From Desulfotalea psychrophila LSv54 (lineage in GTDB: Bacteria; Desulfobacterota; Desulfobulbia; Desulfobulbales; Desulfocapsaceae), in NCBI RefSeq assembly GCF_000025945.1, contig NC_006138.1, forward strand, positions 3,420,001 through 3,452,000: DNA of 32,000 nt. Direction: 5' to 3'. Of the stretch, positions 4,880 through 32,000 are shown piece by piece. Each line of letters begins with the position of its first letter. Positions within the stretch are counted from its first letter, which is position 1. A program made the position numbers and the translations under genes. The notes beneath the pieces were generated by a model. It saw nothing but the letters and a program-made list of their open reading frames with translations. It made no database searches and was not told where the DNA came from.

Positions 4880-4914
4880 AAAAAAAGGCTCCAGAATGCA
4901 AGCATCCTGGAGCC
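4880..4914 (-). terminator. Rho-independent terminator of the GRE/activase unit
   Basis: On the minus strand, GGCTCCAGG-loop-CTGGAGCC is followed by T7 (A-run 4880-4886 on plus). It lies 65 nt after the activase stop. Confidence 0.7.
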
Positions 4915-4978
4915 TTTATAAATACATTACCTGTTATTTAAGAAGCCGAAGATCCCTTACAGCAATCTTCCCAGCAGG

Positions 4979-5917
4979 CTATTTAAAATTTCTTTCCTTG
5001 TAAGCATCGGCAATCAGCTTCAGCTTATCAAAAAGAGCAGGCTCAAGCGTCGCATCTACCAACTCGTAATCACGACCAATATAACCATACTTTGGCTGGC
5101 CCATACGATGATACTCAAGTACCTCGTACTCTACAGGATCTCCGGGAAGGCTTTCCAAAAATTCAACAATTGCCTTAATATCTTCTTCAGTATCATTAAA
5201 GCCTGGAATAATTGGAGTTCGAGCACGAATAGGAACGCTTGGCGCCATTTCACGAATTTTTCGTAAATTTTCCAACGGGAGCTTATTGGACACACCAGTA
5301 AACTCTTTATGCTTCTCTTCGTTAAGACTCTTTACATCAAACATAATGGTATTGAGATAGGGAACACAGGCCTCAATATTTTCCCATTTAGCAGCGCCAC
5401 AGGTCTCAACGGCAGTCTTTATACGTCTGTGACGAGCTTCTCGCAACAGGGCAAGGGCAAACTCTGCTTGAGCAAAAGGTTCTCCTCCAGAGAGTGTCAT
5501 GCCACCGCCTGAACGAGCATAGAAGATAGCGTCTTCTTCAACACGATCAACTACTTTCTTAACAGTCATCTCTTCACCGTACATGTTCAGGGCACCAGAA
5601 GGACAGGCATCGGCGTAAGCTTGCTCATTGCTAACAAATTCACGACGCAATACAACCTTACCGTCTGCTCCCTCGGCAATTGCACCGTCGGTACATACCT
5701 CAGTACAACGAACACATTTATCAAGTCCTAAACATTTACTGGGGTTATAGGCCAACTCTGGCTTATGTTTTTGCGATTCAGGATTACAGCACCACTTACA
5801 ATGCAATGGACATCCCTTTAAAAATGCAACAGTGCGGATGCCCGGGCCATCGTGAACGGAATATTTTTGAACGTTAAAAACAACGCCCTTTATTTTATTA
5901 TCTAAAAGTGAACTCAT
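4979..5917 (-). CDS. islB: Glycyl radical enzyme activating enzyme (radical SAM, with ferredoxin-like insert)
   Basis: N-terminus is MSSLLDNKIKGVVFNVQKYSVHDGPGIRTVAFLKGCPLHCKWCCNPES (GRE-activase signature plus CxxxCxxC). Extra Cys clusters are CLGLDKCVRCTEVC and CPSGAL. It sits immediately downstream of the GRE. The start is set at ATG 5917 (the track ORF extends to 6001). The symbol depends on the GRE assignment. Confidence 0.9.
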   Translation of the reverse strand: MSSLLDNKIKGVVFNVQKYSVHDGPGIRTVAFLKGCPLHCKWCCNPESQKHKPELAYNPSKCLGLDKCVRCTEVCTDGAIAEGADGKVVLRREFVSNEQAYADACPSGALNMYGEEMTVKKVVDRVEEDAIFYARSGGGMTLSGGEPFAQAEFALALLREARHRRIKTAVETCGAAKWENIEACVPYLNTIMFDVKSLNEEKHKEFTGVSNKLPLENLRKIREMAPSVPIRARTPIIPGFNDTEEDIKAIVEFLESLPGDPVEYEVLEYHRMGQPKYGYIGRDYELVDATLEPALFDKLKLIADAYKERNFK

Positions 5918-6027
5918 GATGCTTACCCGGCCCCTTATATAAATTAATATACTACAAGCAAATATGGAGATGATCCGGGGACCATCTCCATACCATAGCA
6001 CATGCTACAAACTACTTGCTACGAAAC

Positions 6028-8514
6028 CTACATATTTTCGTGAGCGGTACGTCTGATCAGATCGTTCTGAAGATCTTTAGAGAGATCACAGAAGTAAGCA
6101 GAATATCCTGCAATACGAACGATCAGGGTACGATATGCTTCTGGATTCTCTTGAGCAAGTCTCAAGGTCTCAGCGTTAACAACGTTGAACTGAATGTGCC
6201 ACAAACGAAGATCACAGAAGGTACGAATGAAATGTACCAACTTCTGAGTTCCTTCCTCACCTTGAACACACTTAGGTGTGAACTTGATGTTCACAAGACG
6301 AGCTGCACGCTCACGGTGGTTGAAGTTTTTAGAGGTGTAGTTAGAGAGAAGAACCGCAGTAGGTCCGTTCTTATCAGCACCGTGAGAAGCAGAAGAACCA
6401 TCGGAAAGAGAGGTTCCTGCATAACGTCCGTTAGGAGTTGCACATACCACTTTACCAAAAGGTACGTGGGAGGTGAATGGTACATAACGAAGATCAAGGA
6501 ATACGCCAAGCTCACGCTGATACTTCTCAGCATAACCTACACAGAGCTGATCAAGATCACGAGCAATTGAATCTGCATATGGATCGTTATTACCGAAACA
6601 TGGAGCAGTCATCATAAGGGCACGGAGATCTTCCTGGCCTTCGAAGTTGTTCTTCATAGCTTCAAGAACTTCAGTCATGGTGACTTTCTTCTCTTCGAAT
6701 ACGAACTTCTTGATTGCGCTCATTGAGTCAACAAGAGTACCAACACCCATGAACTCAAAGTAACCAAGGTCAATTCCCTCAGGAATATATGGTTGGTGAA
6801 TATCAATGCAATGCTTCATGGCAAGATCATGAAGCGCAGAACCCATAGGTGCAGCAAAATGACGAGCACGGGTCTTGATTACATAGTACTGCTGTTCGAA
6901 AGCAATCTTAAGGAAGTTGATGTGCTGAGCTTTGTAAGCATTCCAGAACTCTTCCCAGGTCTCCATCTTGGTTACATCACCAGTCTCGATGGAAAGTTGA
7001 GCATCACCGAACTTAAGCATTTTACCGTTGAAGAATACAGACTCAAGGGCAGCTACAAAGTTGATGTAACAACCACCAGCTGTGTAGGTATCACGGTTTG
7101 GCATACGAATCTCAGCACAACCAGATACTGAATAGTCGTAAATCTCTTCGAACTTAGCACCTTTTGCAAGGTGAAGTGGAATTACTTCCTCATCATTGAT
7201 CAGTTTAGGGAAACCAGAACCTTCTTTAATGGTCTCTGCAACTTCTGCAAGGAAACGCTCAGGAGCACGAGCGTGAATACGAGCAGCAAGATCAGGGTAG
7301 TGATGAGGGAACTCACGCTTAGAACGAAGGAAGAGATAAGTCAACTCGTTGGTTGCATCAAGACCATCTGGGGTCTGACCACCGATGGTTACTGCTTCCC
7401 AATGAGCATAGCCTTCGTTGAAAGCACCACCGGTAGGGGAGATATAGAGATCGATATACTGAGCCATACCTACATACATAAGCTCAACGTACTCAATAGC
7501 CTGGTCATCGGTGAGAATACCAGCTTCAATATCTTGCTTGTAGAATGGATAGAGGTACTGATCCATACGACCGTTGGAGATAATGGTACCAGTTTTCTGC
7601 TCAAGACGAGAGAACATCTGAGTGAACCACTGAGATTGACATGCTTCGTAGAAGGTACGAGCTGGATGCTCAGGTACGTGGTTACATACCTCAGCCATCT
7701 TGAGAAGTTCTGCCTTACGAACAGGATCAGCACATTTCTCTGCAAGTTCCATGGCAAGTGCAGCGTGACGCTTAGCCCAAACAATAACAGCTTCACATAC
7801 GAGAATAGCTGCCTGAAGGAAAGGCTTCTTGTCTACGTTGTCACCAGGAGAGAGAGGGTCAAGAGCTTCAAGCTGAACTGTAAACTCGTCACGAAGTCCA
7901 CCGAAACCACGCTTCAATACTTTATCGAAGTCATGTACCCACTGATTAGAAGAACGAAAAGAAGCGGTCTCGTTTACGATGAAACGTGAAACCATTCCAT
8001 CTGGATCATCATAGGTAAGTGCGTGTACGTCTGCTGGAAGGGTTTTAGCAAGAGTCTCGTGATAAGTCTTACCTTTCCAGTAAGGAGCAATCTCTTTAAC
8101 AACGATATCTGCATCTGCTTGAGAGATGGAGAAAGGAGAGTTGTCACGGGTAGGAAGATCAACTACCGCAGTATCAAGAAAGTCACCATCAAGCTCTGGG
8201 TAGAGAACACCATAACGTCCCTGGTATCCGATACGACCGGCAAGAAGCTGATCGTCATCGATGTATACAGTCATGTTCTCTGCACACTTCATAAGAGATT
8301 TTGCCCAACGAAGGTTAAGATGCTGACCTTCTGTCTCTTGCATACCTTGGGTGAAATAAAGAGCACGCTCTATATCAATTTGTGGCTTAGCAGTTTCAAT
8401 TTTATCAAGGATTTTGAAAACACGCTCGTGGGTTGCACGGAACTTGTTTACTTTTCCTGCGGCCTTGTCCATGATCATTTGCTCATGTGGAGAGCGACAA
8501 CATTCTACAGACAT
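6028..8514 (-). CDS. islA: Glycyl radical enzyme, sulfonate-cleaving type; best guess is isethionate sulfite-lyase (IslA/IseG-like), with HpsG/HpfG-type DHPS enzymes as alternatives
   Basis: 828 aa. The Gly-radical motif is [10 protein letters not shown] (G803) and the Cys loop is SVSGCAE (C466, E468). R187 and Q191 (FRSSNQW) and R676 (LDLRYVPF) each sit 2 residues below the IslA residues I recall (R189, Q193, C468, E470, R678, G805). There is a strong RBS (AAGGAG) 7 nt before ATG 8514. GRE family confidence is ~0.97; the isethionate-specific call is ~0.55. Confidence 0.85.
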
Positions 8515-8584
8515 AATCCAACTCCTTATCTATTTTAATTGGGGTGCTGCACTTTTAGCGATCTAACGCCTTTTCCTTTTATAT

Positions 8585-8600
8585 AGCAACAGGCGTGCCA
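8585..8600 (-). promoter_or_regulatory. Canonical sigma-54 (-24/-12) promoter for the GRE/activase unit
   Basis: The minus strand reads TGGCACGCCTGTTGCT (TGGCAC-N5-TTGC, GG-N10-GC). The -12 element lies ~70 nt upstream of the GRE ATG. Confidence 0.75.
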
Positions 8601-8776
8601 TTTACAAAAAAAAATTCAAGATGCTGAAATAGCGTATAAACACAAAATGAAGAGAGATTTCTCTTCTTATTGATAATGGTTATTATTGCCATGTACTCTT
8701 TGCACGATTGCAACGCCAAGACAAAATATGTCGATAAAATATGCTGATACAGATAGTTAGCCAAAAAAAAGCCAAT

Positions 8777-8819
8777 GTTGCTTTTTTGCAACATGGCACT
8801 TTTGTTGCACAGCTGCACA
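8777..8819 (+). promoter_or_regulatory. Two copies of the repeated motif GTTGC-N6-GCA(C/A); candidate activator (UAS) sites
   Basis: GTTGCTTTTTTGCAAC (8777-8792, a perfect palindrome) and GTTGCACAGCTGCACA (8804-8819). They lie ~180-230 nt upstream of the GRE sigma-54 promoter. The same motif recurs at 15857, 15972, 22786, 22891 and 22970. Confidence 0.5.
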
Positions 8820-8841
8820 GGCCAAGAGAGAAGGGATAATG

Positions 8842-8879
8842 AAAAAAAAGAGGGCCACGGAAAAAAAACCCCGTGGCCC
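8842..8879 (-). terminator. Rho-independent terminator of BMC operon A
   Basis: On the minus strand, GGGCCACGG-loop-CCGTGGCCC is followed by TC-T8. It lies 45 nt after the AldDH-A stop and is homologous to the hairpin after eutJ at 15986-16017. Confidence 0.75.
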
Positions 8880-8923
8880 CCCTAAACAGCTATGATTCAT
8901 TTATGATAAATCACATATACTTA

Positions 8924-10351
8924 CTATACAATTCTAAAGCTACCTACAAGGGCACAACGACGAAGACGAACAAATGTTGCCGCGTTACTTACACCTTCAC
9001 CGGTTGGAGTAGAGATGGTCATGGAAGTCCAACCCTCACCACCTGCACCAAGTCCGGCAATATGCGGTCCGTTCTTAACAAAGAGACTGGTATTCACAGC
9101 CTTAGCCATTTTCTCCATGTTATGAATATTGGTAGAGTGCATACCAGCAGTGTGACTCAAACCACGCTCAAGCATAAGAGCCCACTCAAGAGCTTGGTCA
9201 AAGTTACGGGCACGAACAACGGGAATAAGTGGCATCATCTGCTCGGTTACAGCGAAAGGATGACGAGCATCGCCTTTCACATCAACGAAGAGAAGTTTAC
9301 ATCCCTTAGGAATGGTGATTCCAGCAAGATCTGCAAGCTTATAAGCATCACGACCAACCCACTTAGGATTAGCACGACACTTATCGGTACCGTAGTCAAG
9401 AAGAACGGTTTTACCGATGGTCTCTGCCTGGGCAAGAGAGATCTCAAATGCGCCGATAGCAGTAAACTCACGTTTGAACTCATCCGCTACAGAATCAACA
9501 ATAATGATCTCTTTTTCATTGGCACAGATCAGGTTGTTATCAAAAGAGGCACCAATATAAATGCTCTCAGCAGCACGAGCAAGATCAGCGGTCTCATCAA
9601 CTACTACAGGAGGATTACCTGCACCAGCTGCGATAAGGCGCTTATCGGTAATCTTACGAGCAGCAGCTACAACAGCCTCGCCACCGGTTACGGTAAGAAG
9701 ATTAATTCCCTCGTAGGTAAAGAGACGTCGGGCCGCATCAAGAGAAGGCTCTTTGATACAGACGAGAAGGTTATGAACACCTGTCTCTTCTACAATAGCC
9801 TTGTTCATCATCTTGATGGTTTCTTGAGTAATACGTTTTGCTGCAGGATGAGGAGCAAAAACAACACTGTTACCACCAGAGATCATGCTGATACCATTAT
9901 TGATAACGGTAGATCCTGGGTTAGTAGAAGGAGTAACAGAGGCAATAACACCCCAAGGAGCATTCTCGATAAGGGTAAAGCCCTCGTCACCGGTAATTGC
10001 TGTAGGCTGAAGAATCTCTGGTCCTGGAGTACGGTTAGCCACAAGCAAGGTCTTAGCAACCTTATCTTCAACATTACCCATACCAGTCTCAGATACAGCC
10101 ATCTCAGAGAGACGACGTGCATTCATGCGAGCAGCGCGACGCATAACATCTACTACACGGTTACGCATAGCAACGGTATCAATAAGCTTGTAAGCCACTT
10201 TGGCTGCCGCTACGGCATCATCAAGCTCATCAAAAACACCCCAATCGCCTGCTGCCGGGGCAGAGGCTACAAGGCTACCATTTTGCGCTTTGCTCAATTG
10301 AGCAAGTACTTCTGATACAATAGACTCAATTTGTGCTTGTCCTATAGACAT
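8924..10351 (-). CDS. eutE: CoA-acylating aldehyde dehydrogenase (EutE/PduP family) with N-terminal encapsulation peptide, copy A
   Basis: Catalytic Cys context is FDNNLICANEKE, plus ENAPWGVIASVTPSTNP. The N-terminus MSIGQAQIESIVSEVLAQL is an amphipathic helix followed by a linker. The start is set at ATG 10351 (GGAG RBS, matching copy B); the track start is 10363. Confidence 0.93.
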   Translation of the reverse strand: MSIGQAQIESIVSEVLAQLSKAQNGSLVASAPAAGDWGVFDELDDAVAAAKVAYKLIDTVAMRNRVVDVMRRAARMNARRLSEMAVSETGMGNVEDKVAKTLLVANRTPGPEILQPTAITGDEGFTLIENAPWGVIASVTPSTNPGSTVINNGISMISGGNSVVFAPHPAAKRITQETIKMMNKAIVEETGVHNLLVCIKEPSLDAARRLFTYEGINLLTVTGGEAVVAAARKITDKRLIAAGAGNPPVVVDETADLARAAESIYIGASFDNNLICANEKEIIIVDSVADEFKREFTAIGAFEISLAQAETIGKTVLLDYGTDKCRANPKWVGRDAYKLADLAGITIPKGCKLLFVDVKGDARHPFAVTEQMMPLIPVVRARNFDQALEWALMLERGLSHTAGMHSTNIHNMEKMAKAVNTSLFVKNGPHIAGLGAGGEGWTSMTISTPTGEGVSNAATFVRLRRCALVGSFRIV

Positions 10352-10372
10352 CTCTAACTCCACTATCTAATT

Positions 10373-10663
10373 TTATTTGGCGTAAAGTTTCCCACCTGAA
10401 GCAGTGATCTGATCAACAATTGCAATAACATTCAGATCAACAGGAGATCTCTCTCCTGTCGCTGTACGGGGCGCAGCGCCACCCCCGCGAACCAAAAGAA
10501 CATACTCGCCCTCTCCAGCCCCAAGGGTATCCACCGTCACTTGACCGTAACGTATTATATCGCCTTCAGCATTAATAAGATCCACAAGAAGCAAACTTGC
10601 ATGAGGGACTCTAGGGTCACGAATAGTTGCAACGACCTGACCTTTCACTCTTCCTAACTCCAT
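10373..10663 (-). CDS. eutN: BMC vertex pentamer (BMC-P, EutN/PduN/CcmL family), copy A
   Basis: 96 aa. MELGRVKGQVVATIRDP...LLLVD...DTLGAGEGEYVLLVRG is typical of EutN/CcmL. Confidence 0.92.
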   Translation of the reverse strand: MELGRVKGQVVATIRDPRVPHASLLLVDLINAEGDIIRYGQVTVDTLGAGEGEYVLLVRGGGAAPRTATGERSPVDLNVIAIVDQITASGGKLYAK

Positions 10664-10707
10664 ACCATTTCCCTCAAATAAATCTGCTTCTTAGACAATC
10701 TACCTTC

Positions 10708-10986
10708 TTATTTTTTCAATCTAATTGGATACACTTCCTCAAGATCCTGATGGGGACGAGGAATAACATGGGCCGCAATAAGCTTGCCCATACGTTTTGC
10801 TGCTGCGGCACCGGCATCAATTGCGGCTTTACACGCGGCAACATCACCACGAATAAGCACACAGACATAACCGCCACCAATACGCTCATAACTCACCAAC
10901 TCTACCTGAGCCGCCTTAGTCATTACGTCTGCTGCATCTACAAGACCGGTTATACCTTTTGCTTCTAATATACCAAGAGCATCCAT
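10708..10986 (-). CDS. eutM: BMC-H hexamer shell protein (PduA/EutM type), copy A
   Basis: 92 aa with PF00936-like features: ALGILEAKG...[12 protein letters not shown]...[21 protein letters not shown]...HVIPRPH. Confidence 0.95.
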   Translation of the reverse strand: MDALGILEAKGITGLVDAADVMTKAAQVELVSYERIGGGYVCVLIRGDVAACKAAIDAGAAAAKRMGKLIAAHVIPRPHQDLEEVYPIRLKK

Positions 10987-11004
10987 TGCTGTTTCCTCTT
11001 CTCT

Positions 11005-11370
11005 CTATTTTTTAGTTGCTTTGGTCGCAGGACGTTTCGCATTAGCTGCTACCTTAGCCGCTGCTGCTGCCGCCTTTTCTTCTGCAAAGATAGAACCTAT
11101 CTTGTCATTCACCAGAACCTCAAGACTATCATCCGGACGAGGAATAACGTTGGTTGCAACACATTCACCCAAACGAGATCCAGCTGCCTTACCTGCATCT
11201 ACAGCTGCTCCAACTGCGCCAAGATCACCCTCACAGATAACAGTTACACCACCTGCTGCATCCGTGGTTATGGTCTTCACAGACACACGGGCAGCCTTAG
11301 TCATAGCATCCGCTACTTCAATGGCGGCAACCAAACCAATTACTTCTACAAAACCTATAGAACCATTCAT
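11005..11370 (-). CDS. BMC-H shell protein with Ala/Lys-rich C-terminal extension, copy A
   Basis: 121 aa. The BMC domain is [27 protein letters not shown]...NVIPRPDD, followed by the tail [40 protein letters not shown]. Confidence 0.9.
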   Translation of the reverse strand: MNGSIGFVEVIGLVAAIEVADAMTKAARVSVKTITTDAAGGVTVICEGDLGAVGAAVDAGKAAGSRLGECVATNVIPRPDDSLEVLVNDKIGSIFAEEKAAAAAAKVAANAKRPATKATKK

Positions 11371-11415
11371 ACTAACGCTTCCTTTCTTTATTGGTTATAA
11401 CCAGAGGGTCAGCAC

Positions 11416-11973
11416 CTATAATATACTACGCATAACTTCAGGCGTAACGCTTGGAATCACAACAGAACGAACAAGCATTGCAGTCTCGGCACAGGCATCA
11501 GCTGCTGCCTGGGTTGCCATACTTACTGCTGCTACATCACCGGTGAGAAGACAAAAAGCCTTACCACCAAGACCCATGGCAATACGTACCTCGGCAATAT
11601 CTACCTCGGCGGTCTTTGCTGCCCGATCTGCCGCTACAATCGCTGAAGATGCGGAAAAAGTCTCTATTATACCCAGGGAAGGCCCCTGTGGTTTTCCTGC
11701 AATGCCAGACATGGCAGCAATAACGGATCGATCAATACTCGGGATAACAAAATGATCCGCCACGGCACCATCGGCACCGTCAATACCTGCAGCCACGGCA
11801 GCTTGAACCGCTGCCACGTCACCGTGCACAGCTGCAATAAACTTACCTGGACAGATGGTCTTCATCATCAAGATCTCTACGCTAGAGGCCTTCATCATCC
11901 TATCTGCAGCCTCAATACCAGCTGCAATACTACTAAATTCAATCATTCCAACTGATTGTATATAAGTTGTCAT
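11416..11973 (-). CDS. pduT: Tandem-domain BMC-T shell protein, PduT type (Fe-S pore), copy A
   Basis: 185 aa with two BMC domains. The KTICPGKF motif is identical to the Salmonella PduT segment that carries the [4Fe-4S] ligand Cys (C41 here). Confidence 0.9.
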   Translation of the reverse strand: MTTYIQSVGMIEFSSIAAGIEAADRMMKASSVEILMMKTICPGKFIAAVHGDVAAVQAAVAAGIDGADGAVADHFVIPSIDRSVIAAMSGIAGKPQGPSLGIIETFSASSAIVAADRAAKTAEVDIAEVRIAMGLGGKAFCLLTGDVAAVSMATQAAADACAETAMLVRSVVIPSVTPEVMRSIL

Positions 11974-11975
11974 GA

Positions 11976-13319
11976 CTACACTCCTTTAATCACTATTTCA
12001 TTACCTACTTCTACCACAGTGCCTGCGATAGAGGCGTGAACTGTAGCACCTAAGGCACCTTGAGGCACTGCACCAACCAACTGACCCACCTGAACAAAAT
12101 CACCTGCCTTAACCTGGGCCACTGCTGGTGCACCGATATGCTGATTAAGTGGAATACGCACCTCAGCAGGAGTATAGTCACCGGTAAAATCAGGATGAAT
12201 ATTCATGAACTTATCAATACCAATCTTCAGGGCCAAACGAGGCACAGGCACCTTACGGTAAGGACGAACCTTAGACTGGGCGGGAATAACCTCACGAGAT
12301 CCCTCATAGGGCACCTTGTTTTCGCGAAAACGAGCCTTTAGAGCTGCGTTAATACGACGAGGAGAAAGGCCCATGGGACAACTAAACAACTCACAAACAC
12401 CACACTCACAACAGAGAGCTGCCTGCATGGCACCAAGGGCGACATCTCCACCACCACCAAAGGCACGCATCACCTTATGGGTCTGAAAATCCTGACCTAT
12501 AAGATAACGGGGACAGAGCTCGGTACAAAGGCGACACTGAATACAGGCAGTGGCAGCCTGGCGCTGCATGCTCTGCAGATCACGGCTGGCCATGGTATGT
12601 AGATAATGACCCCGTGGCAAAATAATAAGACCACCGGTGGTCTTAGTGACTACCTTGGCGGCAAATTCCTCTGCTGAGTCGACCATGCGACCCATCATTG
12701 GCCCACCAAGAATGTAAACAGGATCAGCAATGGTTGCGCCGCCGCAGTGAGCAAGACACTCACTCAACTTGGTGCCAAGAGGCACACGAATAACAGCAGG
12801 GCTACCTACATTACCGGTTACAGTAACAATTTTATGAGTAACTGGCGTACCTTTCATGGCGTCGGCTACTCCGGCAAGAGTACCCACATTGGCAACAACA
12901 GCGCCAACATCCTTAGGCAAACCAAGAGGCGGAATGGTTTTTCCGGTTACCTCGTAGACTAGGGTCTGCTCATCACCTGCTGGATAAAAGTTATCCAACT
13001 GAACAAGCTCTAAACCTGTCCCCTCTATACAGTCAGCAAATATTTTTGCTATTTCGGTATATTTACGTTTTATACCGATAACACCGCGTGTAGCTCCCGT
13101 AACGGAGACGATGGCCTGCATCGCGACAACGATATCCGCTGCGCGGGTTCGCATAATATGTTGATCAGTATGCAACAGTGGCTCACACTCACAACCGTTG
13201 GCTATAACTGTATCCACCTGCGTATCATATTTTACATGGGCGGGAAAACCTGCTCCGCCCTCGCCCACAATACCGGCATCCAGTATCGAGCGAAGAAGAC
13301 TATCTTTATTCATGATCAT
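11976..13319 (-). CDS. pduS: PduS/RnfC-like flavin and Fe-S oxidoreductase, copy A
   Basis: 447 aa. Contains GEGGAGFPAHVKY (NADH-binding RnfC/NuoF-like) and two 4Fe-4S motifs, CIQCRLCTELCP and CCECGVCELFSCP. Size matches PduS. Confidence 0.9.
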   Translation of the reverse strand: MIMNKDSLLRSILDAGIVGEGGAGFPAHVKYDTQVDTVIANGCECEPLLHTDQHIMRTRAADIVVAMQAIVSVTGATRGVIGIKRKYTEIAKIFADCIEGTGLELVQLDNFYPAGDEQTLVYEVTGKTIPPLGLPKDVGAVVANVGTLAGVADAMKGTPVTHKIVTVTGNVGSPAVIRVPLGTKLSECLAHCGGATIADPVYILGGPMMGRMVDSAEEFAAKVVTKTTGGLIILPRGHYLHTMASRDLQSMQRQAATACIQCRLCTELCPRYLIGQDFQTHKVMRAFGGGGDVALGAMQAALCCECGVCELFSCPMGLSPRRINAALKARFRENKVPYEGSREVIPAQSKVRPYRKVPVPRLALKIGIDKFMNIHPDFTGDYTPAEVRIPLNQHIGAPAVAQVKAGDFVQVGQLVGAVPQGALGATVHASIAGTVVEVGNEIVIKGV

Positions 13320-13358
13320 CTCTTTAAGTTCGCTAGAGAGCTACAAAAAAAACGGCTG

Positions 13359-13637
13359 TTACTTGTCACGTTTGAAAGGGAAGACTTCTTCCAAATCACC
13401 ATGTGGACGTGGAATAACGTGCACAGCTACTACCTCGCCAATACGTGCTGCTGCTGCTGCACCTGCATCGGTAGCGGCCTTACATGCTGCCACATCACCA
13501 CGAACAATCGCAGTTACGAGACCAGCACCAATTTGCTTGTAACCTACCAGTTGTACGCGAGCAGCTTTTACCATTGCATCTGAAGCTTCGATGAGTGCGG
13601 TCAAGCCTTTAGTTTCAATCATTCCTAATGAATCCAT
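13359..13637 (-). CDS. BMC-H hexamer shell protein, copy A (first shell gene of the operon)
   Basis: 92 aa, [59 protein letters not shown]...HVIPRPH. Confidence 0.95.
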
Positions 13638-13696
13638 TGTATTCCTCCAAGTTTCGTGTAACGAAAAAAGTTTTACTCTATTTTACCAACATCCGT

Positions 13697-14677
13697 TTAT
13701 AGGCACTGACCTACAACGGCAACCTTATATATATCATCCGCAGTACAACCACGGGAAAGATCATGCCAACCTGCAGCAAAACCCTGAAGAAGCGGGCCAA
13801 GAGCTGTATACCCACCCAAACGCTGAGCGAGCTTATAGCCAATATTACCTGCTTCAAGAGAAGGAAAGATAAGCACATTTGCCATTCCTTCAACTACACT
13901 ACCGGGAGCCTTTTGGGCAGCAACACTTGGGACGATAGCTGCATCGAGTTGTAGCTCACCGTCAACCAACATATCAGGAGCGCGCTTACGAATTTGCTCA
14001 ACGGTATCACGAACAAAAATTGCCCGCTCATGATTGGCGCTACCCTTAGTAGAAAAAGAGAGCATGGCCACCCGAGGTTCTTCACCGAGTAACTTGCGCG
14101 CCTTATCCGCCGATGATATGGCTATATCAGCCAAAGTATTTTCATTGGGCACTGGCACTACACCACAATCGGCAAAGATATAATCTTTTCCGCCTTCCGG
14201 TGCTATCATAAAAAAGAAGCTGGAGATGGTTTTCATACCCTGCTGCTTGGGCAGAAACTGCAAACCTGCACGAATAACATTACCAGTCGAAGATATATTA
14301 CCGGAAACACCCAGATTAACCTCCTCACGACGCACCATCATAGCTGCACCGGCAAGGGGACATCTCATGGCCTTTACGGCATCATCCATGCTCAGCTTTT
14401 TACCCTTTGCCTCACGAATTGCAATAAATTCATTGGCATTTTTTTCAAGCAGAGAGGGACTGGTATGGTCAACCACGGTCACCCCACGACTTGAACATTT
14501 TGCCTCCCGCATCTTAGCGCGAACAGCAAACGGAGAACCCATAAATACTGGATGAGCAAGCCCTTCTGCCTGAAGACGACCAGCCGCCTCAAAAACTCTC
14601 TTATCGAGGCAATCAGGAAAGACAATTGTCTTAGGCGCTTTACGACATACATCTTTACAACGTTCTAATATGCTCAC
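13697..14677 (-). CDS. eutD: Phosphate acetyltransferase (EutD/Pta, PTA_PTB family)
   Basis: 326 aa with IVFPDCLDKRV..AA, GNISSTGNVIRA, FSTKGSA, AGNIGYKLAQRLGG. Present only in module A. Confidence 0.9.
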   Translation of the reverse strand: MSILERCKDVCRKAPKTIVFPDCLDKRVFEAAGRLQAEGLAHPVFMGSPFAVRAKMREAKCSSRGVTVVDHTSPSLLEKNANEFIAIREAKGKKLSMDDAVKAMRCPLAGAAMMVRREEVNLGVSGNISSTGNVIRAGLQFLPKQQGMKTISSFFFMIAPEGGKDYIFADCGVVPVPNENTLADIAISSADKARKLLGEEPRVAMLSFSTKGSANHERAIFVRDTVEQIRKRAPDMLVDGELQLDAAIVPSVAAQKAPGSVVEGMANVLIFPSLEAGNIGYKLAQRLGGYTALGPLLQGFAAGWHDLSRGCTADDIYKVAVVGQCL

Positions 14678-14686
14678 ACTTATCTC

Positions 14687-15511
14687 CTAAGCAACGTTGT
14701 TGATGCACGCAATACGTACAGAAGTGGGAGTACTATAGGTTACATCTACACCTTCGGGGAAATAAACCATATCGCCAACCTTAGCCACCAAGGTTTTTCC
14801 ACAAATATCAAGATGTAACTCACCTGCAACAACAACACCTACCTCTGGACATTCCACGGTACGCTTGAAAGATGCCTTCTCCCACTCCATATAACCACCG
14901 GCAAGTTGAGCGCCAGCACATTCGCCCAGGGCATCGGCAATAAACACCTGTTCTGCTACAGCTACAGGAGCACCGGCATTTGCCTTAAGAAGGCGATCGC
15001 CCTCAACCACACAGATACCACCACAGGAAGAAGAGGCATTCTCTGCTACCAGAGAGACAGAAACATCAGGCTGAGCAAGTCTTTCCGTTACTACCCTACG
15101 CACAAGACTCTCAAGAGCCTCATCGGTCAACACACCCGGAAGGCGCTTTTTCAGGATTTCACAGACTTCAGAAATCAGGACATCGGCCTCGCCTGAGGTG
15201 TTCACTGGAGCAGTTGGAGTAACTATGGCAGGAGCAGCAAAAGCCACTGGCGCTACAGGAGCAGCAGGTTTTACTGGAACAGCTGGGGCCGCCGGAGCAA
15301 CTGGGGCAGCCGGAGCAGGAGTACTGGTAAGAGGACAGGCCTCAACCACAACCTTCTTCTCTTCAACCTGGAGTATTTTCAAACCTAACTCCAAGGCCTT
15401 ATCAACTGCTTGAGGGGTAATAATACACTCTTGAGGCGGGCATAGGATCGACTTCTTCCCACTCTTGAGGGCCCCATTAATATCGGCTTCGGTTATAATC
15501 CGCTTTCCCAT
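14687..15511 (-). CDS. eutQ: EutQ-like cupin protein with Ala/Pro-rich internal linker, copy A
   Basis: 274 aa. The N-terminus MGKRIITEADINGAL...ITPQA resembles Salmonella EutQ (MKKLITANDIR...). Next comes a ~45-aa linker (PAPAAPVAPAAPAVPVKPAAPVAPVAFAAPA...), then a C-terminal cupin (GGYMEWEKASF...GDMVYFPEG). AGGAGG RBS. Confidence 0.85.
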   Translation of the reverse strand: MGKRIITEADINGALKSGKKSILCPPQECIITPQAVDKALELGLKILQVEEKKVVVEACPLTSTPAPAAPVAPAAPAVPVKPAAPVAPVAFAAPAIVTPTAPVNTSGEADVLISEVCEILKKRLPGVLTDEALESLVRRVVTERLAQPDVSVSLVAENASSSCGGICVVEGDRLLKANAGAPVAVAEQVFIADALGECAGAQLAGGYMEWEKASFKRTVECPEVGVVVAGELHLDICGKTLVAKVGDMVYFPEGVDVTYSTPTSVRIACINNVA

Positions 15512-15691
15512 GCACTTCCTCCTACTGTTTTATATCTTATAGAGTCCTTCCCTCTTAAAAGCTGAGAGGCAAAGACCATCAATTTGAAAAATAACAAATT
15601 ATTACAATAACTTTTCATCCAGAACAGCTCATAAAAAGAGACGTTTAACCGAGCGACAGCATTCCAAAATGAAAAAACTCTATCCTCTTCT

Positions 15692-15707: not shown

Positions 15708-15856
15708 AAAAAACACATGTTCTCTTTTTTTTTGTTGTTAGCGAAAAAAAATCCTATTTCCATAGGGAAAACCAAGCCATCCTTAAAAAAAATATCAGGC
15801 AAATCCTTTTTTTTCAGGAAAAGAGAGAGACAAAGGCCAAGAAACAATGGCCAAAA

Positions 15857-16048: not shown

Positions 16049-16864
16049 CTAACGTAAATTCAGCGACGCTATGGAAAATGGAGTAAGCATAAGAGGCTGG
16101 GTCGGTAGCTGAATAGGCAACTTCAACTCCTTCTCAAAGACCCCTACAACCCCGGGCAAACAACAGGTACCGCCAGAGAGCAAAATAGTCTCCACCTCCT
16201 GACCCCTTATATGATCTGCCACAATATCAGTCACCCGTTCCAAGGTTGGACGGACAATACTGAGAATATTAAATTCAGCGGCCTTGCGTTTACGCTGCTC
16301 TGCCTCTTCTATAGAGATATCATAGTAACCGGCAATGGTCAGAGAAAGATGCTTACCGCCCGTAGGCTCGTCATCACTAAAAACCACCTGACTATTCCTC
16401 ACCACAGCAGTACCGGTGGTACCACCACCAATATCAACAATGGCGGCCTTATTCAGATCAAGAAGATGAGCAACACAGCTTGGCTCATCCTCTACATAGG
16501 TGACCTCAAGCCCCACAGATTCCAAGATATTTATCGAGAGGCGCGCATCTGTTCCCGGAGGAAAAGATGTCGAGGCTTGGGTGATTTCACAGCCAAGACG
16601 CTCTTCGGCCTGCTTGATAAAGCGACGGACAATATCAATAGCGCCGACATAATCGACAACCACGCCATCACGTACCACCTCTGCCCATTCCAGGAAAACG
16701 GCAACAGGTTCGCCCTCGGCATCAATGGCCATCAAGACAACATCGGCTGTACCTAAATCAATACCAACGTGAATTGGCCCCTCTACTTCAACTGCTTCGG
16801 TATCATTAATCATTGCCGCAGCACGGTCGAGCCTTTCGCAGGCGAGTTCCCATGAAATAGCCAT
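16049..16864 (-). CDS. eutJ: EutJ-like actin/Hsp70-fold ATPase (putative BMC chaperone)
   Basis: Contains VGIDLGTADVVLMA, DGVVVDYVGA, IVDIGGGTTGTAV and LSGGTCCLPG. The start is set at ATG 16864 (MAISWELA...), directly abutting the AldDH-B stop; the track ORF extends to 16942 and overlaps AldDH. Present only in module B. Confidence 0.88.
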   Translation of the reverse strand: MAISWELACERLDRAAAMINDTEAVEVEGPIHVGIDLGTADVVLMAIDAEGEPVAVFLEWAEVVRDGVVVDYVGAIDIVRRFIKQAEERLGCEITQASTSFPPGTDARLSINILESVGLEVTYVEDEPSCVAHLLDLNKAAIVDIGGGTTGTAVVRNSQVVFSDDEPTGGKHLSLTIAGYYDISIEEAEQRKRKAAEFNILSIVRPTLERVTDIVADHIRGQEVETILLSGGTCCLPGVVGVFEKELKLPIQLPTQPLMLTPFSIASLNLR

Positions 16865-16865
16865 A

Positions 16866-18293
16866 CTAGACAATCCTAAAGCTGCCGACAAGGGCACAGC
16901 GACGAAGACGAACAAAGGTCGCTGCGTTAGTAACACCTTCACCGGTTGGAGTGGAGATAGTCATGGAAGTCCAACCTTCACCGCCTGCACCAAGTCCGGC
17001 AATATGGGGACCATTTTTCACAAAGAGACTGGTATTAACGGCCTTGGCCATTCTCTCCATATTGTGAATATTGGTGGAGTGCAGACCAGCGGTATGACTC
17101 AAACCGCGTTCAAGCATAAGAGCCCACTCAAGAGCTTGATCAAAGTTACGGGCACGAACAACAGGAATAAGCGGCATCATCTGCTCGGTTACAGCAAAAG
17201 GATGACGGGCGTCACCTTTTACGTCAACAAAGAGAAGTTTACAACCAGCAGGAATGGTTACTCCGATAAGCTCTGCAAGCTTATAGGCATCACGGCCAAC
17301 CCATTTAGGATTAGCACGACACTTATCGGTACCGTAATCAAGAAGAACGGTCTTACCAATGGCCTCTGCCTGCTCAAGAGAAATTTCAAAGGCACCAGCG
17401 GCGACAAACTCACGCTTAAACTGATCCGCTACAGACTCAACAACAATAATCTCTTTCTCGTTGGCGCAGATGAGGTTGTTATCAAAGGAGGCACCGATAT
17501 AAATACTTTCAGCAGCACGGGCAAGATCCGCTGTCTCATCAACCACAACGGGAGGATTACCAGCACCTGCGGCAATAAGACGCTTATCGGTGACCTTACG
17601 AGCAGCCTTAACAACGGCTTCACCACCGGTTACGGTGAGAAGATTAATTCCCGGATAGGTAAAGAGACGTTGGGCCGCATCAAGAGATGGCTCTTTAATG
17701 CAAACGAGCAGGTTATTAATACCAGTCTCCTCTGCAATAGCCTTATTCATGAGCTTAATAGCCTCTTGAGTGATGCGCTTTGCGGCAGGATGCGGAGCAA
17801 AGACAACTGCATTACCACCTGAGATCATACTGATACCGTTATTAATAACAGTTGATCCAGGATTGGTAGAGGGAGTAACCGAGGCAATAACACCCCAAGG
17901 AGCATTCTCTATAAGGGTAAAGCCATCATCACCGGTAATTGCCGTGGGCTGAAGAATCTCAGGACCCGGAGTGCTGTTGGCCACAAGCAGTGTTTTCAAC
18001 ACCTTATCTTCTATATTGCCCATGCCCGTTTCTGCAACAGCCTTCTCAGCAAGGGGACGTGCATTCATCCGGGCGGCACGACGCATTACCTCAACGACAC
18101 GGGTACGCATAGCAACAGTATCAATAAGCTTGCAAGCCGCCTTAGCTGCCGCAACGGCATCATCCAACTCATCAAAGACACCCCAATCACCTGCTGCCGA
18201 GCCAGACAAAACAGGAGCACCCTGCTGAACATTACCTATTTGAGAAATAACCTCTGCGACAATAGACTCAATTTGTTCGCGGCCAATAGACAT
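16866..18293 (-). CDS. eutE: CoA-acylating aldehyde dehydrogenase (EutE/PduP family) with N-terminal encapsulation peptide, copy B
   Basis: 475 aa. By eye roughly nine in ten residues are identical to copy A. It has the same catalytic motif ICANEKE. The N-terminus is MSIGREQIESIVAEVISQIG. Confidence 0.93.
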   Translation of the reverse strand: MSIGREQIESIVAEVISQIGNVQQGAPVLSGSAAGDWGVFDELDDAVAAAKAACKLIDTVAMRTRVVEVMRRAARMNARPLAEKAVAETGMGNIEDKVLKTLLVANSTPGPEILQPTAITGDDGFTLIENAPWGVIASVTPSTNPGSTVINNGISMISGGNAVVFAPHPAAKRITQEAIKLMNKAIAEETGINNLLVCIKEPSLDAAQRLFTYPGINLLTVTGGEAVVKAARKVTDKRLIAAGAGNPPVVVDETADLARAAESIYIGASFDNNLICANEKEIIVVESVADQFKREFVAAGAFEISLEQAEAIGKTVLLDYGTDKCRANPKWVGRDAYKLAELIGVTIPAGCKLLFVDVKGDARHPFAVTEQMMPLIPVVRARNFDQALEWALMLERGLSHTAGLHSTNIHNMERMAKAVNTSLFVKNGPHIAGLGAGGEGWTSMTISTPTGEGVTNAATFVRLRRCALVGSFRIV

Positions 18294-18314
18294 CTCTTAC
18301 CCCACTCTCTAATT

Positions 18315-18602
18315 TTATTTACTATAAATCACTTCATTCAGAGCACTGATCTGGTCAACAATGGCAACAACGCTCAGGTCAATCGGTGGCTTCCCTCCGC
18401 CCACCACAAGCGCGGCACCACTTCCCCGCACCAGGAGGACATACTCGCCCTCTCCGGCACCGAGAGTATCTGCAGCCACATGTCCCTCGCGTCTTACCAC
18501 ACCATCAGCGCGAATGAAGTCAACAAGAAGCAAGCTTGTATGGGGAACCTTAGGATCACGAATGGTAGCAACTACCTGACCTCTTACTCTTGCCAATTCC
18601 AT
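18315..18602 (-). CDS. eutN: BMC vertex pentamer (EutN/PduN/CcmL family), copy B
   Basis: The start is set at ATG 18602 (MELARVRGQVVATIRDP...), giving 95 aa. By hand alignment about two-thirds of residues are identical to copy A, with a 1-aa indel. Confidence 0.9.
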   Translation of the reverse strand: MELARVRGQVVATIRDPKVPHTSLLLVDFIRADGVVRREGHVAADTLGAGEGEYVLLVRGSGAALVVGGGKPPIDLSVVAIVDQISALNEVIYSK

Positions 18603-18649
18603 ACTCTTTCTCCCCAACCACACATTACTTCACAGACTGCGTGATTTAA

Positions 18650-18928
18650 TTATTTATTCAATTTAATTGGAAAAATTTCCTCAAGGTCCTGATGAGGACG
18701 AGGAATAACATGGGCGGCAATAAGCTTACCCATACGTTTTGCGGCTGCAGCGCCCGCATCTATTGCAGCCTTACAGGCAGCGACATCGCCACGAATAAGC
18801 ACACAGACATAACCACCACCAATACGCTCGTAACTCACCAACTCTACCTGAGCCGCCTTGGTCATAACATCTGCTGCCTCTATAAGGCCGGTAATACCTT
18901 TTGCCTCTAATATTCCAAGAGCATCCAT
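18650..18928 (-). CDS. eutM: BMC-H hexamer shell protein, copy B
   Basis: 92 aa, with 6 differences from 10708-10986 (hand count). Confidence 0.95.
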
Positions 18929-18945
18929 ACTATGTCCTCTGTTTT

Positions 18946-19314
18946 CTATTTTTTGACTGCCTTAGAAGCCAATTCTTTCGCGGGCTTAGCTGCCGCAATA
19001 GCGGCAGCTGCCTTTTCCTCTGCAAAAACAGAACCAATTTTATCGGTCAAAAGAGCTTCAAGGCTTTCATCTGGACGGCCAATAACGTTGGTACCGACAC
19101 ATTCACCCAAGCGAGAGCCAGCTGCCTTACCGGCATCTACGGCTGCGCCAACTGCGGCAAGATCACCCTCACAGATAACGGTTACACCACCTGCTGCATC
19201 CGTGGTTATGGTCTTCACAGACACGCGAGCAGCCTTAGCCATAGCATCAGCAACTTCAATGGCGGCAACCAGACCAACAACTTCAACAAAACCTATAGAA
19301 CCATCCATGCTCAT
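18946..19314 (-). CDS. BMC-H shell protein with Ala/Lys-rich C-terminal extension, copy B
   Basis: 122 aa (or 120 aa from ATG 19308). It has a BMC domain plus the tail [39 protein letters not shown]. Confidence 0.9.
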
Positions 19315-19343
19315 CTTACCTCTTTTAATTGGTTAGCCCGCAC

Positions 19344-19901
19344 CTACAATATACTACTCATAACCTCTGGAGTAACACTTGGAATCACAACAGAACGGAC
19401 AAGCATTGCAGTCTCGGCACAGGCATCAGCTGCTGCCTGGGTTGCCATACTGACTGCAGCCACATCACCGGTGAGAAGACAAAAAGCCTTACCACCAAGA
19501 CCCATGGCAATACGTACTTCGGCAATATCTACCTCGGCAGTCTTCGCGGCACGATCTGCGGCCACAATTGCAGAGGATGCAGAAAAAGTCTCTATAATAC
19601 CAAGAGAACAACCCTGTGGTTTACCGGCAATACCGGACATTGCAGAAATAACGGATTGGTCAATGCTAGGAATTACGAAATGATCCGCTACGGCGCCATC
19701 GGCACCGTCAATACCAGCAGCCACGGAAGCCTGAACCGCAGCCACGTCACCGTGTACCGCTGCAAGAAACTTACCAGGACAGATGGTCTTCATCATCAAA
19801 ATCTCTACACTGGAGGCCTTCATCATACGATCTGCGGCTTCAATACCGGCTGCAATGCTGGTAAATTCTATCATTCCAACTGACTGAATATAAGCTGTCA
19901 T
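19344..19901 (-). CDS. pduT: PduT-type tandem BMC-T shell protein, copy B
   Basis: 185 aa, with 8 differences from copy A (hand count). KTICPGKF is retained, and residues 99-181 are identical. Confidence 0.9.
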   Translation of the reverse strand: MTAYIQSVGMIEFTSIAAGIEAADRMMKASSVEILMMKTICPGKFLAAVHGDVAAVQASVAAGIDGADGAVADHFVIPSIDQSVISAMSGIAGKPQGCSLGIIETFSASSAIVAADRAAKTAEVDIAEVRIAMGLGGKAFCLLTGDVAAVSMATQAAADACAETAMLVRSVVIPSVTPEVMSSIL

Positions 19902-19903
19902 GA

Positions 19904-21247
19904 CTACGCTCCTTTAATCACTACTTCATTACCTACTTCCATTACAGTACCTGCAATAGAGGCATGAATTTTTGCACCCAAGGCTCCCTTAGGCACTGCA
20001 CCAATCAACTGACCCACCTTGACAACATCACCTTTTTTGACCTGAGCCACAGATGGTGCACCGATATGCTGATGAAGCGGAATACGCACCTCAGCAGGAA
20101 TATAATCACCGGTGAAGGCAGGATGAAGATCCATAAAACGATCTATACCAATCTTCAAAGCCAAACGAGGCACTGGCACCTTACGATAAGGGCGCATGTC
20201 TGATTGGGCAGGAATCACTGCTCGAGAGCCCTCGTAAGGAATCCTTTCCTGACGCATTTTTGCTCTAATGGCAGCATTGATACGACGAGGAGAAAGGCCC
20301 ATGGGACAGCTAAACATTTCACAGACGCCACATTCACAACAGAGAAAAGCCTGTTCAAGGCCAGCACCATTCAATCCACCCGCAGCAAAGGCACGCATCA
20401 CCTTATGGGTTTGAAAATCCTGACCTATAAGATAGCGCGGACAAAGATCGGTACAGAGGCGACACTGAATACAGGTACTGGCAGCCTGACGTTCCATGGT
20501 ATGGATATCACGACTGGCCATCACATGCAGATAATGACCTCGGGGCAGAACAATGAGTCCACCGGTGGTCTTAGTCACCATCTTAGTGGCAAAGTCCTCT
20601 TCGGAATCCACCATGCGACCCATCATAGGGCCACCAAGAATGTATATAGGATCGGCGACAGTTGAGCCACCACAATGAGCAAGACACTCGCTCATCTTAG
20701 TTCCCAAAGGCACACGAATAACAGCAGGAGAGCCAACATCACCGGTTACGGTAACAATCTTATGAGTTAAGGGTGTTCCCTTAATGGCTGCAGCTACCTC
20801 AGCCAAAGTGCCCACATTGGCAACAACTGCACCAACATCTTTAGGTAGACCAAGAGGCGGAATGGTCTTTCCAGTTACCTCGTAAACCAAAGCCTGCTCA
20901 TCACCTGCTGGATAAAAGTTATCCAATTGGGCAAGCTCCAGGCCTGTTCCTTCTATACAGTCCGCAAATATTTTTGCTATCTCGGTATACTTACTCTTTA
21001 TACCGATAACACCGCGGGTAGCTCCCGTAACGGAGACGATGGCCTGCATCGCAACAACAATATCCGCTGCACGGGTACGCATAATATGTTGATCAGTATG
21101 CAACAGTGGCTCACACTCACAACCGTTGGCTATAACTGTATCCACCTGCGTGTCATATTTAACATGGGCGGGAAAACCTGCTCCGCCCTCGCCCACAATA
21201 CCGGCATCCAGTATCGAGCGAAGAAGACTATCTTTATTCATGATCAT
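19904..21247 (-). CDS. pduS: PduS/RnfC-like flavin and Fe-S oxidoreductase, copy B
   Basis: 447 aa. The first 84 residues are identical to copy A, and divergence rises toward the C-terminus. Both 4Fe-4S motifs are retained. Confidence 0.9.
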   Translation of the reverse strand: MIMNKDSLLRSILDAGIVGEGGAGFPAHVKYDTQVDTVIANGCECEPLLHTDQHIMRTRAADIVVAMQAIVSVTGATRGVIGIKSKYTEIAKIFADCIEGTGLELAQLDNFYPAGDEQALVYEVTGKTIPPLGLPKDVGAVVANVGTLAEVAAAIKGTPLTHKIVTVTGDVGSPAVIRVPLGTKMSECLAHCGGSTVADPIYILGGPMMGRMVDSEEDFATKMVTKTTGGLIVLPRGHYLHVMASRDIHTMERQAASTCIQCRLCTDLCPRYLIGQDFQTHKVMRAFAAGGLNGAGLEQAFLCCECGVCEMFSCPMGLSPRRINAAIRAKMRQERIPYEGSRAVIPAQSDMRPYRKVPVPRLALKIGIDRFMDLHPAFTGDYIPAEVRIPLHQHIGAPSVAQVKKGDVVKVGQLIGAVPKGALGAKIHASIAGTVMEVGNEVVIKGA

Positions 21248-21286
21248 CTCTTTGGGGTCGCTAGAGAGCTACAAAAAAAACGGCTA

Positions 21287-21565
21287 CTATTTGTCACGTT
21301 TGAAGGGAAATACTTCTTCCAGGTCACCATGTGGACGTGGAATAACGTGTACAGCTACCACCTCGCCAATACGTGCGGCTGCTGCTGCACCTGCATCGGT
21401 TGCTGCTTTACATGCTGCAACATCACCACGAACAATCGCAGTTACCAAACCAGCACCAATTTGTTTGTAACCTACAAGTTGTACACGAGCAGCCTTTACC
21501 ATTGCATCTGAAGCTTCAATAAGTGCGATCAAGCCCTTAGTTTCAATCATTCCTAATGAATCCAT
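21287..21565 (-). CDS. BMC-H hexamer shell protein, copy B
   Basis: 92 aa. It has one amino-acid difference (T13I) from 13359-13637 despite about two dozen nucleotide differences (hand count). Confidence 0.95.
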
Positions 21566-21623
21566 TGTATTTCTCCAAGTTTCGTATAACGAAAAAGTTT
21601 TACTCTATTTTGCTACCATCCAT

Positions 21624-21668
21624 TTATAGGCACTGACCTACAACGGCAATTTTCTATACCATCCGCAT
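21624..21668 (-). pseudogene. Remnant of the 3' end of pta/eutD in module B
   Basis: ttataggcactgacctacaacggcaa is identical over 26 nt to the last codons plus stop of pta-A (13697-13722). A further ~20 nt are similar with a 1-nt indel, and homology is then lost. No pta ORF is present in module B. Confidence 0.8.
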
Positions 21669-21759
21669 CCTGGAGCCGCTCAAGGGGAGGAGACACCCTA
21701 GAGCACAAAAGAGGCTCAATACAGGCACGGATCGTCTACTATAACAACATTCGCTTTGA

Positions 21760-22440
21760 TTACTCTGCAGGCTTATTAACGCAGGCTATACGCACAGAGG
21801 TAGGAGTACTGCAAATCACTTCGACAGCCTTAGGGAAATAAACCATATCACCTGCCTCGGCCACCATTTTTTTACCGTCAACCTCAAGATGAAGGGTACC
21901 TGCTACCACCACCGCCACCTCAGGTGATTTTAGCGTACGGGTAAAAGATCCCTTTTCCCATTGCATATGACCGCCAACAAGAGAGGTACCTGCAGTCAAC
22001 TCTTTAACAGCCAAAGAAGCACCATCATTTTCTCTGACAAGACGATCTTCCTCAATGAGAGAGACACCAGCACAAGAGGCAACCACGCCTTCCACTGGAG
22101 ATTGAACAACAACTGGTTCGGCAAGCTTGGCCGTAACAACACGACGAACAAGAGACTCTAAGGCATCTGCTGCCGGGGCTCCCGCCACAGATTCCTGAAT
22201 AATGCCACACACCTCAGCAATAAGGGTGTCCGTTGCGGAAGATCCACGCACAGGGACATAAGAACAGTTCTCCTGAGCTACAAGTCCTGGAGCCTCAAAA
22301 AGTATTTCAACCCCCTGTGCCTGCGCCATTTCAACTGCCTGCTGAGTGACAATGCATTCCTGGGGCGGACATAGGATTGATTTATGACAACCTTGGAGAA
22401 CCTTTTCAATATCGGCCTCGCTTATAATCCGCTTTCCCAT
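21760..22440 (-). CDS. eutQ: EutQ-like cupin protein, copy B (lacks the Ala/Pro linker)
   Basis: 226 aa. N-terminus is MGKRIISEADIEKVL...CPPQECIVTQQA, with the cupin GGHMQWEKGSF...GDMVYFPKA. It is the most diverged paralog pair in the two modules. Confidence 0.85.
   Translation of the reverse strand: MGKRIISEADIEKVLQGCHKSILCPPQECIVTQQAVEMAQAQGVEILFEAPGLVAQENCSYVPVRGSSATDTLIAEVCGIIQESVAGAPAADALESLVRRVVTAKLAEPVVVQSPVEGVVASCAGVSLIEEDRLVRENDGASLAVKELTAGTSLVGGHMQWEKGSFTRTLKSPEVAVVVAGTLHLEVDGKKMVAEAGDMVYFPKAVEVICSTPTSVRIACVNKPAE

Positions 22441-31420: not shown

Positions 31421-32000
<580 letters not shown>

Follow-up and report, generated by a model that had tools for sequence, protein, structure and literature searches.

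The closest described relatives of the system analyzed here are two isethionate sulfite-lyases, both glycyl radical enzymes (GREs): IseG of Desulfovibrio vulgaris Hildenborough (Q727N1, PDB 5YMR; Xing et al. 2019) and IslA of Bilophila wadsworthia 3.1.6 (PDB 7KQ3/7KQ4; Peck 2019, Dawson 2021, Burrichter 2021). The published numbering of the key residues is Arg187, Gln191, Arg676, Cys466 and Glu468 in IseG and Arg189, Gln193, Arg678, Cys468, Glu470 and Gly805 in IslA. The Arg/Gln/Arg sulfonate triad also occurs in HpsG, the 2,3-dihydroxypropane-1-sulfonate (DHPS) sulfolyase of B. wadsworthia (PDB 6LON), so that the triad alone does not separate isethionate enzymes from DHPS enzymes. For import of the substrate, the reference is OaIsePQM, a tripartite ATP-independent periplasmic (TRAP) transporter of Oleidesulfovibrio alaskensis (PDB 8T9T; Newton-Vesty et al. 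2024), whose binding protein OaIseP is reported to be unresponsive to taurine and other small sulfonates (PMC11668362). Here we examined a 32,000-nucleotide stretch of the Desulfotalea psychrophila LSv54 chromosome (NC_006138.1, positions 3,420,001 to 3,452,000; hereafter the window), in which an 828-residue GRE (P0001; 6028..8514, minus strand) is very probably an IseG/IslA-type isethionate sulfite-lyase, judging from its reading frame, motifs, structural matches, phylogeny and published listing.

The open reading frame is read from the minus strand (in the plus-strand frame, 6028-8514 is riddled with stops) and is probably DP3027/Q6AIS4. Under that name (DP3027, 828 aa), Xing et al. 2019 placed the protein in their 'IseG' network cluster, entered it in Supplementary Table 1 as a putative IseG and derived isethionate as its substrate from the association with a microcompartment and a TRAP transporter. 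Earlier, Axen et al. 2014 had pointed to a second GRE-associated microcompartment (GRM) locus of D. psychrophila, whose function they considered likely to be distinct. The isethionate lyase assignment is therefore already known, and ours is a rediscovery of a published bioinformatic prediction.

When all PDB sequences were searched, the best match was 5ymr, D. vulgaris IseG (1361 bits, ~70% identity), closely followed by 7kq3, B. wadsworthia IslA (1357 bits, ~68%); HpsG (6lon, ~60%) scored 1177 bits, several CutC entries ~510 bits and the remaining eliminases ~400 bits. With an E-value of 0 against the solved isethionate lyases, a chance resemblance is ruled out, and at ~70% identity we consider the mapping of residues onto the ligand-bound crystal structures secure. 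The initial annotation had placed the catalytic and sulfonate-binding residues in short motifs, and a script located every one of them exactly: G803 in the C-terminal glycyl radical motif (RVxG-aromatic type, residues 799-808; the Gly_radical Pfam domain is also assigned), C466 and E468 in SGCAE (residues 464-468; a G-C-x-E loop with the thiyl-radical Cys and the general-base Glu), R187 and Q191 in FRSSNQW (residues 186-192) and R676 in LDLRYVPF (residues 673-680). It had further stated that the IslA numbers run two higher throughout. The HMMER alignment to 7kq3 and the published numbering agree on this point: a +1 shift at the N-terminus and an additional residue in IslA close to query position 97 yield a constant offset of +2 from about that position to the C-terminus, so that C466/E468 align to IslA C468/E470 and all six residues named in the initial annotation fall on the published pocket and radical relay. 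The numbering of IseG applies to the D. psychrophila protein directly, with R187, Q191, R676, C466, E468, F680, T310 and G803 identically numbered in both. Residues V678, F680, T310 and W372, which correspond to the essential or substrate-packing V680, F682, T312 and W374 of IslA, are present, and the triad R187, Q191, R676 is unchanged in 120 of 120 homologues. Unlike IseG, the GRE carries Asn190 in place of Ile190 and the Cys loop GCAEI instead of GCTEA.

Which sulfonate does this pocket accept? We computed a tree from the closest homologues of the GRE and of HpsG (120 each), the three crystallised sequences and distant GREs; the latter, taken from a 50%-representative search and at most 51% identical, were outgroups for rooting and carry no functional information. 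Sulfonate GREs of the IslA and HpsG types form one clade (Shimodaira-Hasegawa (SH)-like support 1.0) that splits in two, and the IslA-type half is monophyletic (SH-like 0.997) and contains the D. psychrophila protein together with B. wadsworthia IslA (7kq3) and D. vulgaris IseG (5ymr), the latter in a different subclade. This is the phylogeny that the initial annotation had proposed as a check, and its proposal of a sulfonate C-S lyase pattern, as opposed to choline or propanediol chemistry, holds. From alignments of these two homologue sets (120 each) with the crystallised sequences (three), we also derived residues that discriminate between the two halves (query numbering): HpsG-type sequences have Y186, A189, A308, A310 and I/V680, whereas IslA-type sequences have F186, S/A189, T308, T310 and F680. 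With F186, S189, T308, T310 and F680, the GRE is of the IslA type at every discriminating position, and none of the HpsG-clade residues (Y, A, A, A, I) was found at these five sites. The crystallised HpsG, a member of the sister clade with the same triad and Cys-x-Glu loop, differs from the GRE at positions 186, 189, 190, 308, 310 and 680, where it has Y, A, L, A, A and I.

Upstream of the GRE, profile matches define a microcompartment module with an acetaldehyde-processing core and shell genes (module A, 8924..15511, minus strand), which encodes an EutQ-like cupin, Pta, a bacterial microcompartment (BMC) BMC-H shell protein, a PduS-like protein, BMC-T, two further BMC-H, EutN (BMC-P) and a CoA-acylating aldehyde dehydrogenase (AldDH). 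A diverged tandem copy follows (module B, 16049..22440, minus strand), with EutQ-like, BMC-H, PduS-like, BMC-T, two BMC-H, EutN and AldDH genes plus eutJ. Pta is found only in module A and EutJ only in module B, and module B has no GRE. Paired genes of the two modules encode proteins with 45-99% amino acid identity (AldDH 88.5%, BMC-T 96%, EutN 62%, EutQ-like 45%), and the NLICANEKE Cys motif is intact in both AldDH copies. As a set, these genes are of the GRMguf (IslA) type. The initial annotation had read them as acetaldehyde chemistry carried out by an acylating AldDH, Pta and an EutQ-type acetate kinase. The first two are borne out by their profiles (AldDH, NF011927, 644 bits; Pta, NF007233, 353 bits), whereas the third can be kept only as a possible role: the EutQ-like protein contains the EutQ Pfam domain and scores below the NCBIfam EutQ cut-off. 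The acylating AldDH core fits acetaldehyde released from isethionate, not hydroxyacetone released from DHPS.

The likeness to the Bilophila GRM 'guf' cluster extends to the activase, acylating AldDH, EutN, Pta, EutQ, BMC-H, PduT-like BMC-T, PduS-like protein, amidohydrolase and PAS regulator. Unlike Bilophila, D. psychrophila has two diverged tandem shell/AldDH/PduS modules and two tandem binding-protein genes, and it is a cold-adapted marine sulfate reducer from an order in which this GRE is rare. Housing of Bilophila IslA in a BMC, mentioned in the initial annotation, has been shown experimentally in the literature, and physical encapsulation of the GRE has been shown for Bilophila only; by analogy, the D. 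psychrophila GRE would also be encapsulated.

The window also holds a TRAP system, an association shared with IseG. A fused membrane subunit DctQM (29432..31300, minus strand; DctM 407 bits, DctQ 109 bits) resembles IseQM and is a probable isethionate importer subunit, and the adjacent solute-binding protein gene runs past the window end (31421..32000, minus strand; gene to 32506). Completed from the genome, the binding protein is 66% identical to OaIseP over 314 residues and scores 468 bits against PDB 8t9t, an 'isethionate-binding periplasmic protein', versus 160 bits for the next structure. All 12 isethionate contacts described for OaIseP (PMC11668362) are kept (P38, M39, D77, S95, N98, Y153, R156, R177, W200, N217, L221, H244). 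A second, tandem binding-protein gene, 83% identical and again with 12/12 contacts, is located at chromosome positions 3452894-3453943, the first ending at 3452506. Two tandem binding-protein genes and a fused QM subunit distinguish this system from OaIsePQM.

A number of observations weigh against the isethionate assignment. The GRE sits on a long terminal branch in a subclade (SH-like 0.993) that contains no assayed enzyme, we found neither a published assay of this protein nor growth data for D. psychrophila in the literature, and Xing et al. 2019 mark isethionate use by D. psychrophila with a '?'. At position 190, Asn stands in for a substrate-contacting hydrophobic residue, and Asn is not known there from any characterised enzyme. 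A genuine sulfoacetaldehyde acetyltransferase (Xsc) is encoded elsewhere on the chromosome (978885-980615; 920 bits, cut-off 676), so sulfoacetaldehyde need not pass via isethionate. An Amidohydro_2 protein (PF04909; 23322..24281, plus strand) belongs to a family whose genes also lie beside IslA-type GREs at other loci (L018, 13587-14525; L019, 6420-7256; L020; L027, 4844-5704), an association that spans distant lineages, with and without microcompartments; gene 00649 of the Bilophila IslA cluster is likewise a predicted amidohydrolase. The presence of this conserved partner suggests that the pathway is not fully understood. Finally, NCBIfam NF048011 names the GRE an HpsG-type (2S)-3-sulfopropanediol dehydratase, with 1526 bits against a cut-off of 1000.

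This name is the most direct argument for an HpsG-type DHPS sulfolyase that would yield hydroxyacetone and sulfite, a reading to which the common triad and the 60% identity to HpsG also lend something. NF048011, an 'equivalog' model for HpsG, gives 1559 bits to D. vulgaris IseG, 1504 bits to B. wadsworthia IslA and 1510 bits to true HpsG. Since the model scores isethionate lyases as high as HpsG, its name is uninformative; we had considered it at face value and dropped it on seeing these equal scores, and the DHPS-enzyme names in public records across the IslA clade are probably wrong. The five discriminating residues and the placement in the IslA-type clade both oppose an HpsG function, no acylating AldDH or microcompartment is needed for hydroxyacetone (Bilophila HpsG lacks a microcompartment association and its product is not an aldehyde), and the neighbouring transporter is IseP-like. 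We therefore regard a DHPS sulfolyase as very unlikely. A C-O or C-N cleaving eliminase of the HpfG, CutC or propanediol type would share the GRE eliminase fold, the Cys-x-Glu loop and, in the case of CutC and propanediol dehydratase, the microcompartment association, and yet it is scarcely credible here: scores fall well below the cut-offs for HpfG (NF048009, 423.8 bits versus 1000), CutC (TIGR04394, 506 versus 1050) and HypD (510 versus 1100). The initial annotation had pointed out that CutC-type enzymes have an Asp near the R/Q position, and the site of CutC Asp216 (beta-1 site) is indeed occupied by Gln191; a true CutC is moreover encoded elsewhere in the genome, within a BMC locus of its own. 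Scores and residues together effectively refute this class. Where the initial annotation had left all DHPS enzymes open, HpfG is now excluded by its score, and HpsG is made unlikely by residues, tree and context.

What does Asn190 mean for an isethionate lyase? Ile190 of IseG makes a van der Waals contact with isethionate, and the equivalent Ile192 of IslA is near the sulfonate group. Among the 120 nearest homologues, this position is I in 75, L in 43, V in one and N in one, the N being the GRE itself; I or L is also found in relatives from its order and in the closest metagenomic loci. Asn190 is read from the assembly alone (codon AAT, 7945..7947, minus strand) and may reflect a one-base sequencing error, AAT instead of the Ile codon ATT. 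A hydrophobic residue at this site is not a strictly defining feature of the family, and its replacement by N190 does not exclude IslA/IseG membership because the I192A variant of IslA remains active and this site has been reported to be non-conserved. When we scanned for the FRSSNQW pattern, taking one genome per species, it was found in 18 further genomes: Gordonibacter (including Gordonibacter sp. An230), metagenome-assembled genomes (MAGs) of Eggerthellaceae and Coriobacteriaceae, and gut Peptococcaceae MAGs (L027-L044). These gut sequences group in one deep clade of the IslA type with 60-63% identity to the GRE; Asn is fixed throughout this clade, and the rest of its pocket is of the IslA type at every position. 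Since this clade is separate from the D. psychrophila protein, Asn190 arose at least twice. We considered a transfer from the gut clade and rejected it, given the low identity of that clade to the GRE (only 60-63%) and its branching position outside all remaining IslA-type sequences. In Gordonibacter, the Asn190 GRE gene is followed by genes for an activase, an Amidohydro_2 protein and a CitMHS transporter.

Two related ideas give Asn190 a functional role. One is an IslA-type C-S lyase in which Asn190 shifts substrate range or kinetics, for example by tighter low-temperature binding of the sulfonate or by acceptance of a substituted 2-hydroxyalkanesulfonate that still gives an aldehyde. In its favour, Asn occurs in this GRE alone within the set of 120 nearest homologues, residue 190 touches the substrate or adjoins the sulfonate, Asn was kept in the separate gut clade, and the GRE has a long terminal branch. 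On the other hand, IslA I192A has a KM near that of the wild type and a kcat above that of every other mutant in the panel, at a position described as not conserved among IslA homologues, the remaining pocket residues are all unchanged, both TRAP binding proteins keep the full contact set of the highly specific IseP, and the AldDH/Pta context fits acetaldehyde. We judge such a shift decidedly unlikely. The broader idea that Asn190 marks a distinct functional C-S lyase subtype, reached independently in D. psychrophila and in the gut clade, where an extra hydrogen bond near the sulfonate would alter affinity, temperature behaviour or substrate range, is speculative, and we think it unlikely. Given the I192A kinetics, the non-conserved position and the isethionate-type transporter, Asn190 probably makes little difference and is tolerated without a switch of substrate.

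Adjoining the isethionate lyase gene downstream, as with IseG, is the gene for its putative activase, a radical S-adenosylmethionine (SAM) enzyme of the IseH/IslB type (4979..5917, minus strand). Its likely ATG is at 5917 (312 aa), the open reading frame extending to 6001 with an upstream GTG. It scores 481.8 bits with NF048010 (cut-off 430) over residues 34-329 of the long frame and 341 bits with TIGR02494, and contains CPLHCKWC (CX3CX2C) and ferredoxin-like Cys motifs. An AAGGAG ribosome-binding site immediately precedes the ATG of the GRE gene, and a sigma-54 type -24/-12 element, TGGCACGCCTGTTGCT (8585..8600, minus strand), lies ~70 nt upstream of it. This element reads TGGCAC-N5-TTGCT; the pattern TGGCAC-N5-TTGCW has three exact matches in the window versus 0.11 expected by chance. 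A strong intrinsic-terminator-like hairpin on the minus strand (8848..8883; 15-pair stem with nine GC pairs and a T tail) after the AldDH gene of module A separates the shell operon from the GRE and activase genes, and a second terminator-like hairpin (4884..4917, minus strand) follows the activase gene. Just outside the window, beyond the TRAP binding-protein genes, a PAS/sigma-54 activator gene is located at chromosome positions 3454097-3455515, and such a gene is also found next to IslA homologues in relatives. Based on the flanking terminators, the sigma-54 element and the nearby activator gene, the GRE and activase genes seem to form a separate transcription unit that depends on sigma-54. 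An Rfam scan of the window returned no matches. Between the BMC locus and the TRAP genes (24839-28947, plus strand), we noted genes for EtfB, a ferredoxin-fused EtfA and a CCG/Fe-S oxidoreductase, with no dehydrogenase partner evident.

Elsewhere in the genome, dsrA is present (563 bits, above the cut-off), and thus released sulfite can be respired. An Xsc route and a GRE route for desulfonation of C2 sulfonates occur side by side. The two other GREs of the genome are a CutC (TIGR04394, 1668 bits; within the second BMC locus, at chromosome positions 2058289-2065373) and a stand-alone HypD (NF043068, 1161 bits; 672262-674607), so that the GRE at 6028..8514 is the only sulfonate GRE. D. psychrophila therefore holds three GRE eliminases with different substrates. 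In its own order, a close homologue of the sulfonate GRE occurs in 3 of the 300 other genomes searched, and the single further genome searched from the same genus has none. The nearest relatives, at 75-77% identity, belong to Pseudodesulfovibrio, Maridesulfovibrio and marine metagenomes. In one of these (L018), the same BMC module occurs together with TRAP, GRE, activase and Amidohydro_2 genes; P. piezophilus has the GRE and lacks a microcompartment. Third-position GC is 0.25-0.47 in the GRE/BMC genes (4979-22440) versus 0.43-0.55 in the flanks, the chromosome having an overall GC of 0.468. This low third-position GC, taken with the rarity of the GRE in the order and genus, suggests that the locus may have been acquired horizontally.

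How would the system operate? By analogy with the characterised homologues, the IseP-like TRAP system would import isethionate, and the adjoining radical SAM activase would place a radical on Gly803, from where it would pass to Cys466 as a thiyl radical. This radical would take a hydrogen from C1 of isethionate while Arg187, Gln191 and Arg676 hold the sulfonate group; Glu468 would deprotonate the C1 hydroxyl, and direct elimination of sulfite would leave acetaldehyde. If the reaction is housed in the microcompartment, the acylating AldDH and Pta may convert acetaldehyde to acetyl-CoA and then to acetyl phosphate, and sulfite would be passed to DsrAB for respiration.

Beyond confirming a published prediction, our analysis adds little, and Asn190 is a small testable lead. 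The value of the analysis for annotation lies in five residues, F186, S189, T308, T310 and F680, which tell IslA from HpsG in a simple way where the NCBIfam 'equivalog' labels the whole IslA clade a DHPS enzyme. Isethionate lyases channel the sulfur of organosulfonates into sulfide and are well studied in gut Bilophila and in Desulfovibrio. The locus described here would place the same microcompartment-housed chemistry in a cold marine sulfate reducer, where isethionate, a common osmolyte of algae and animals, may be its substrate.

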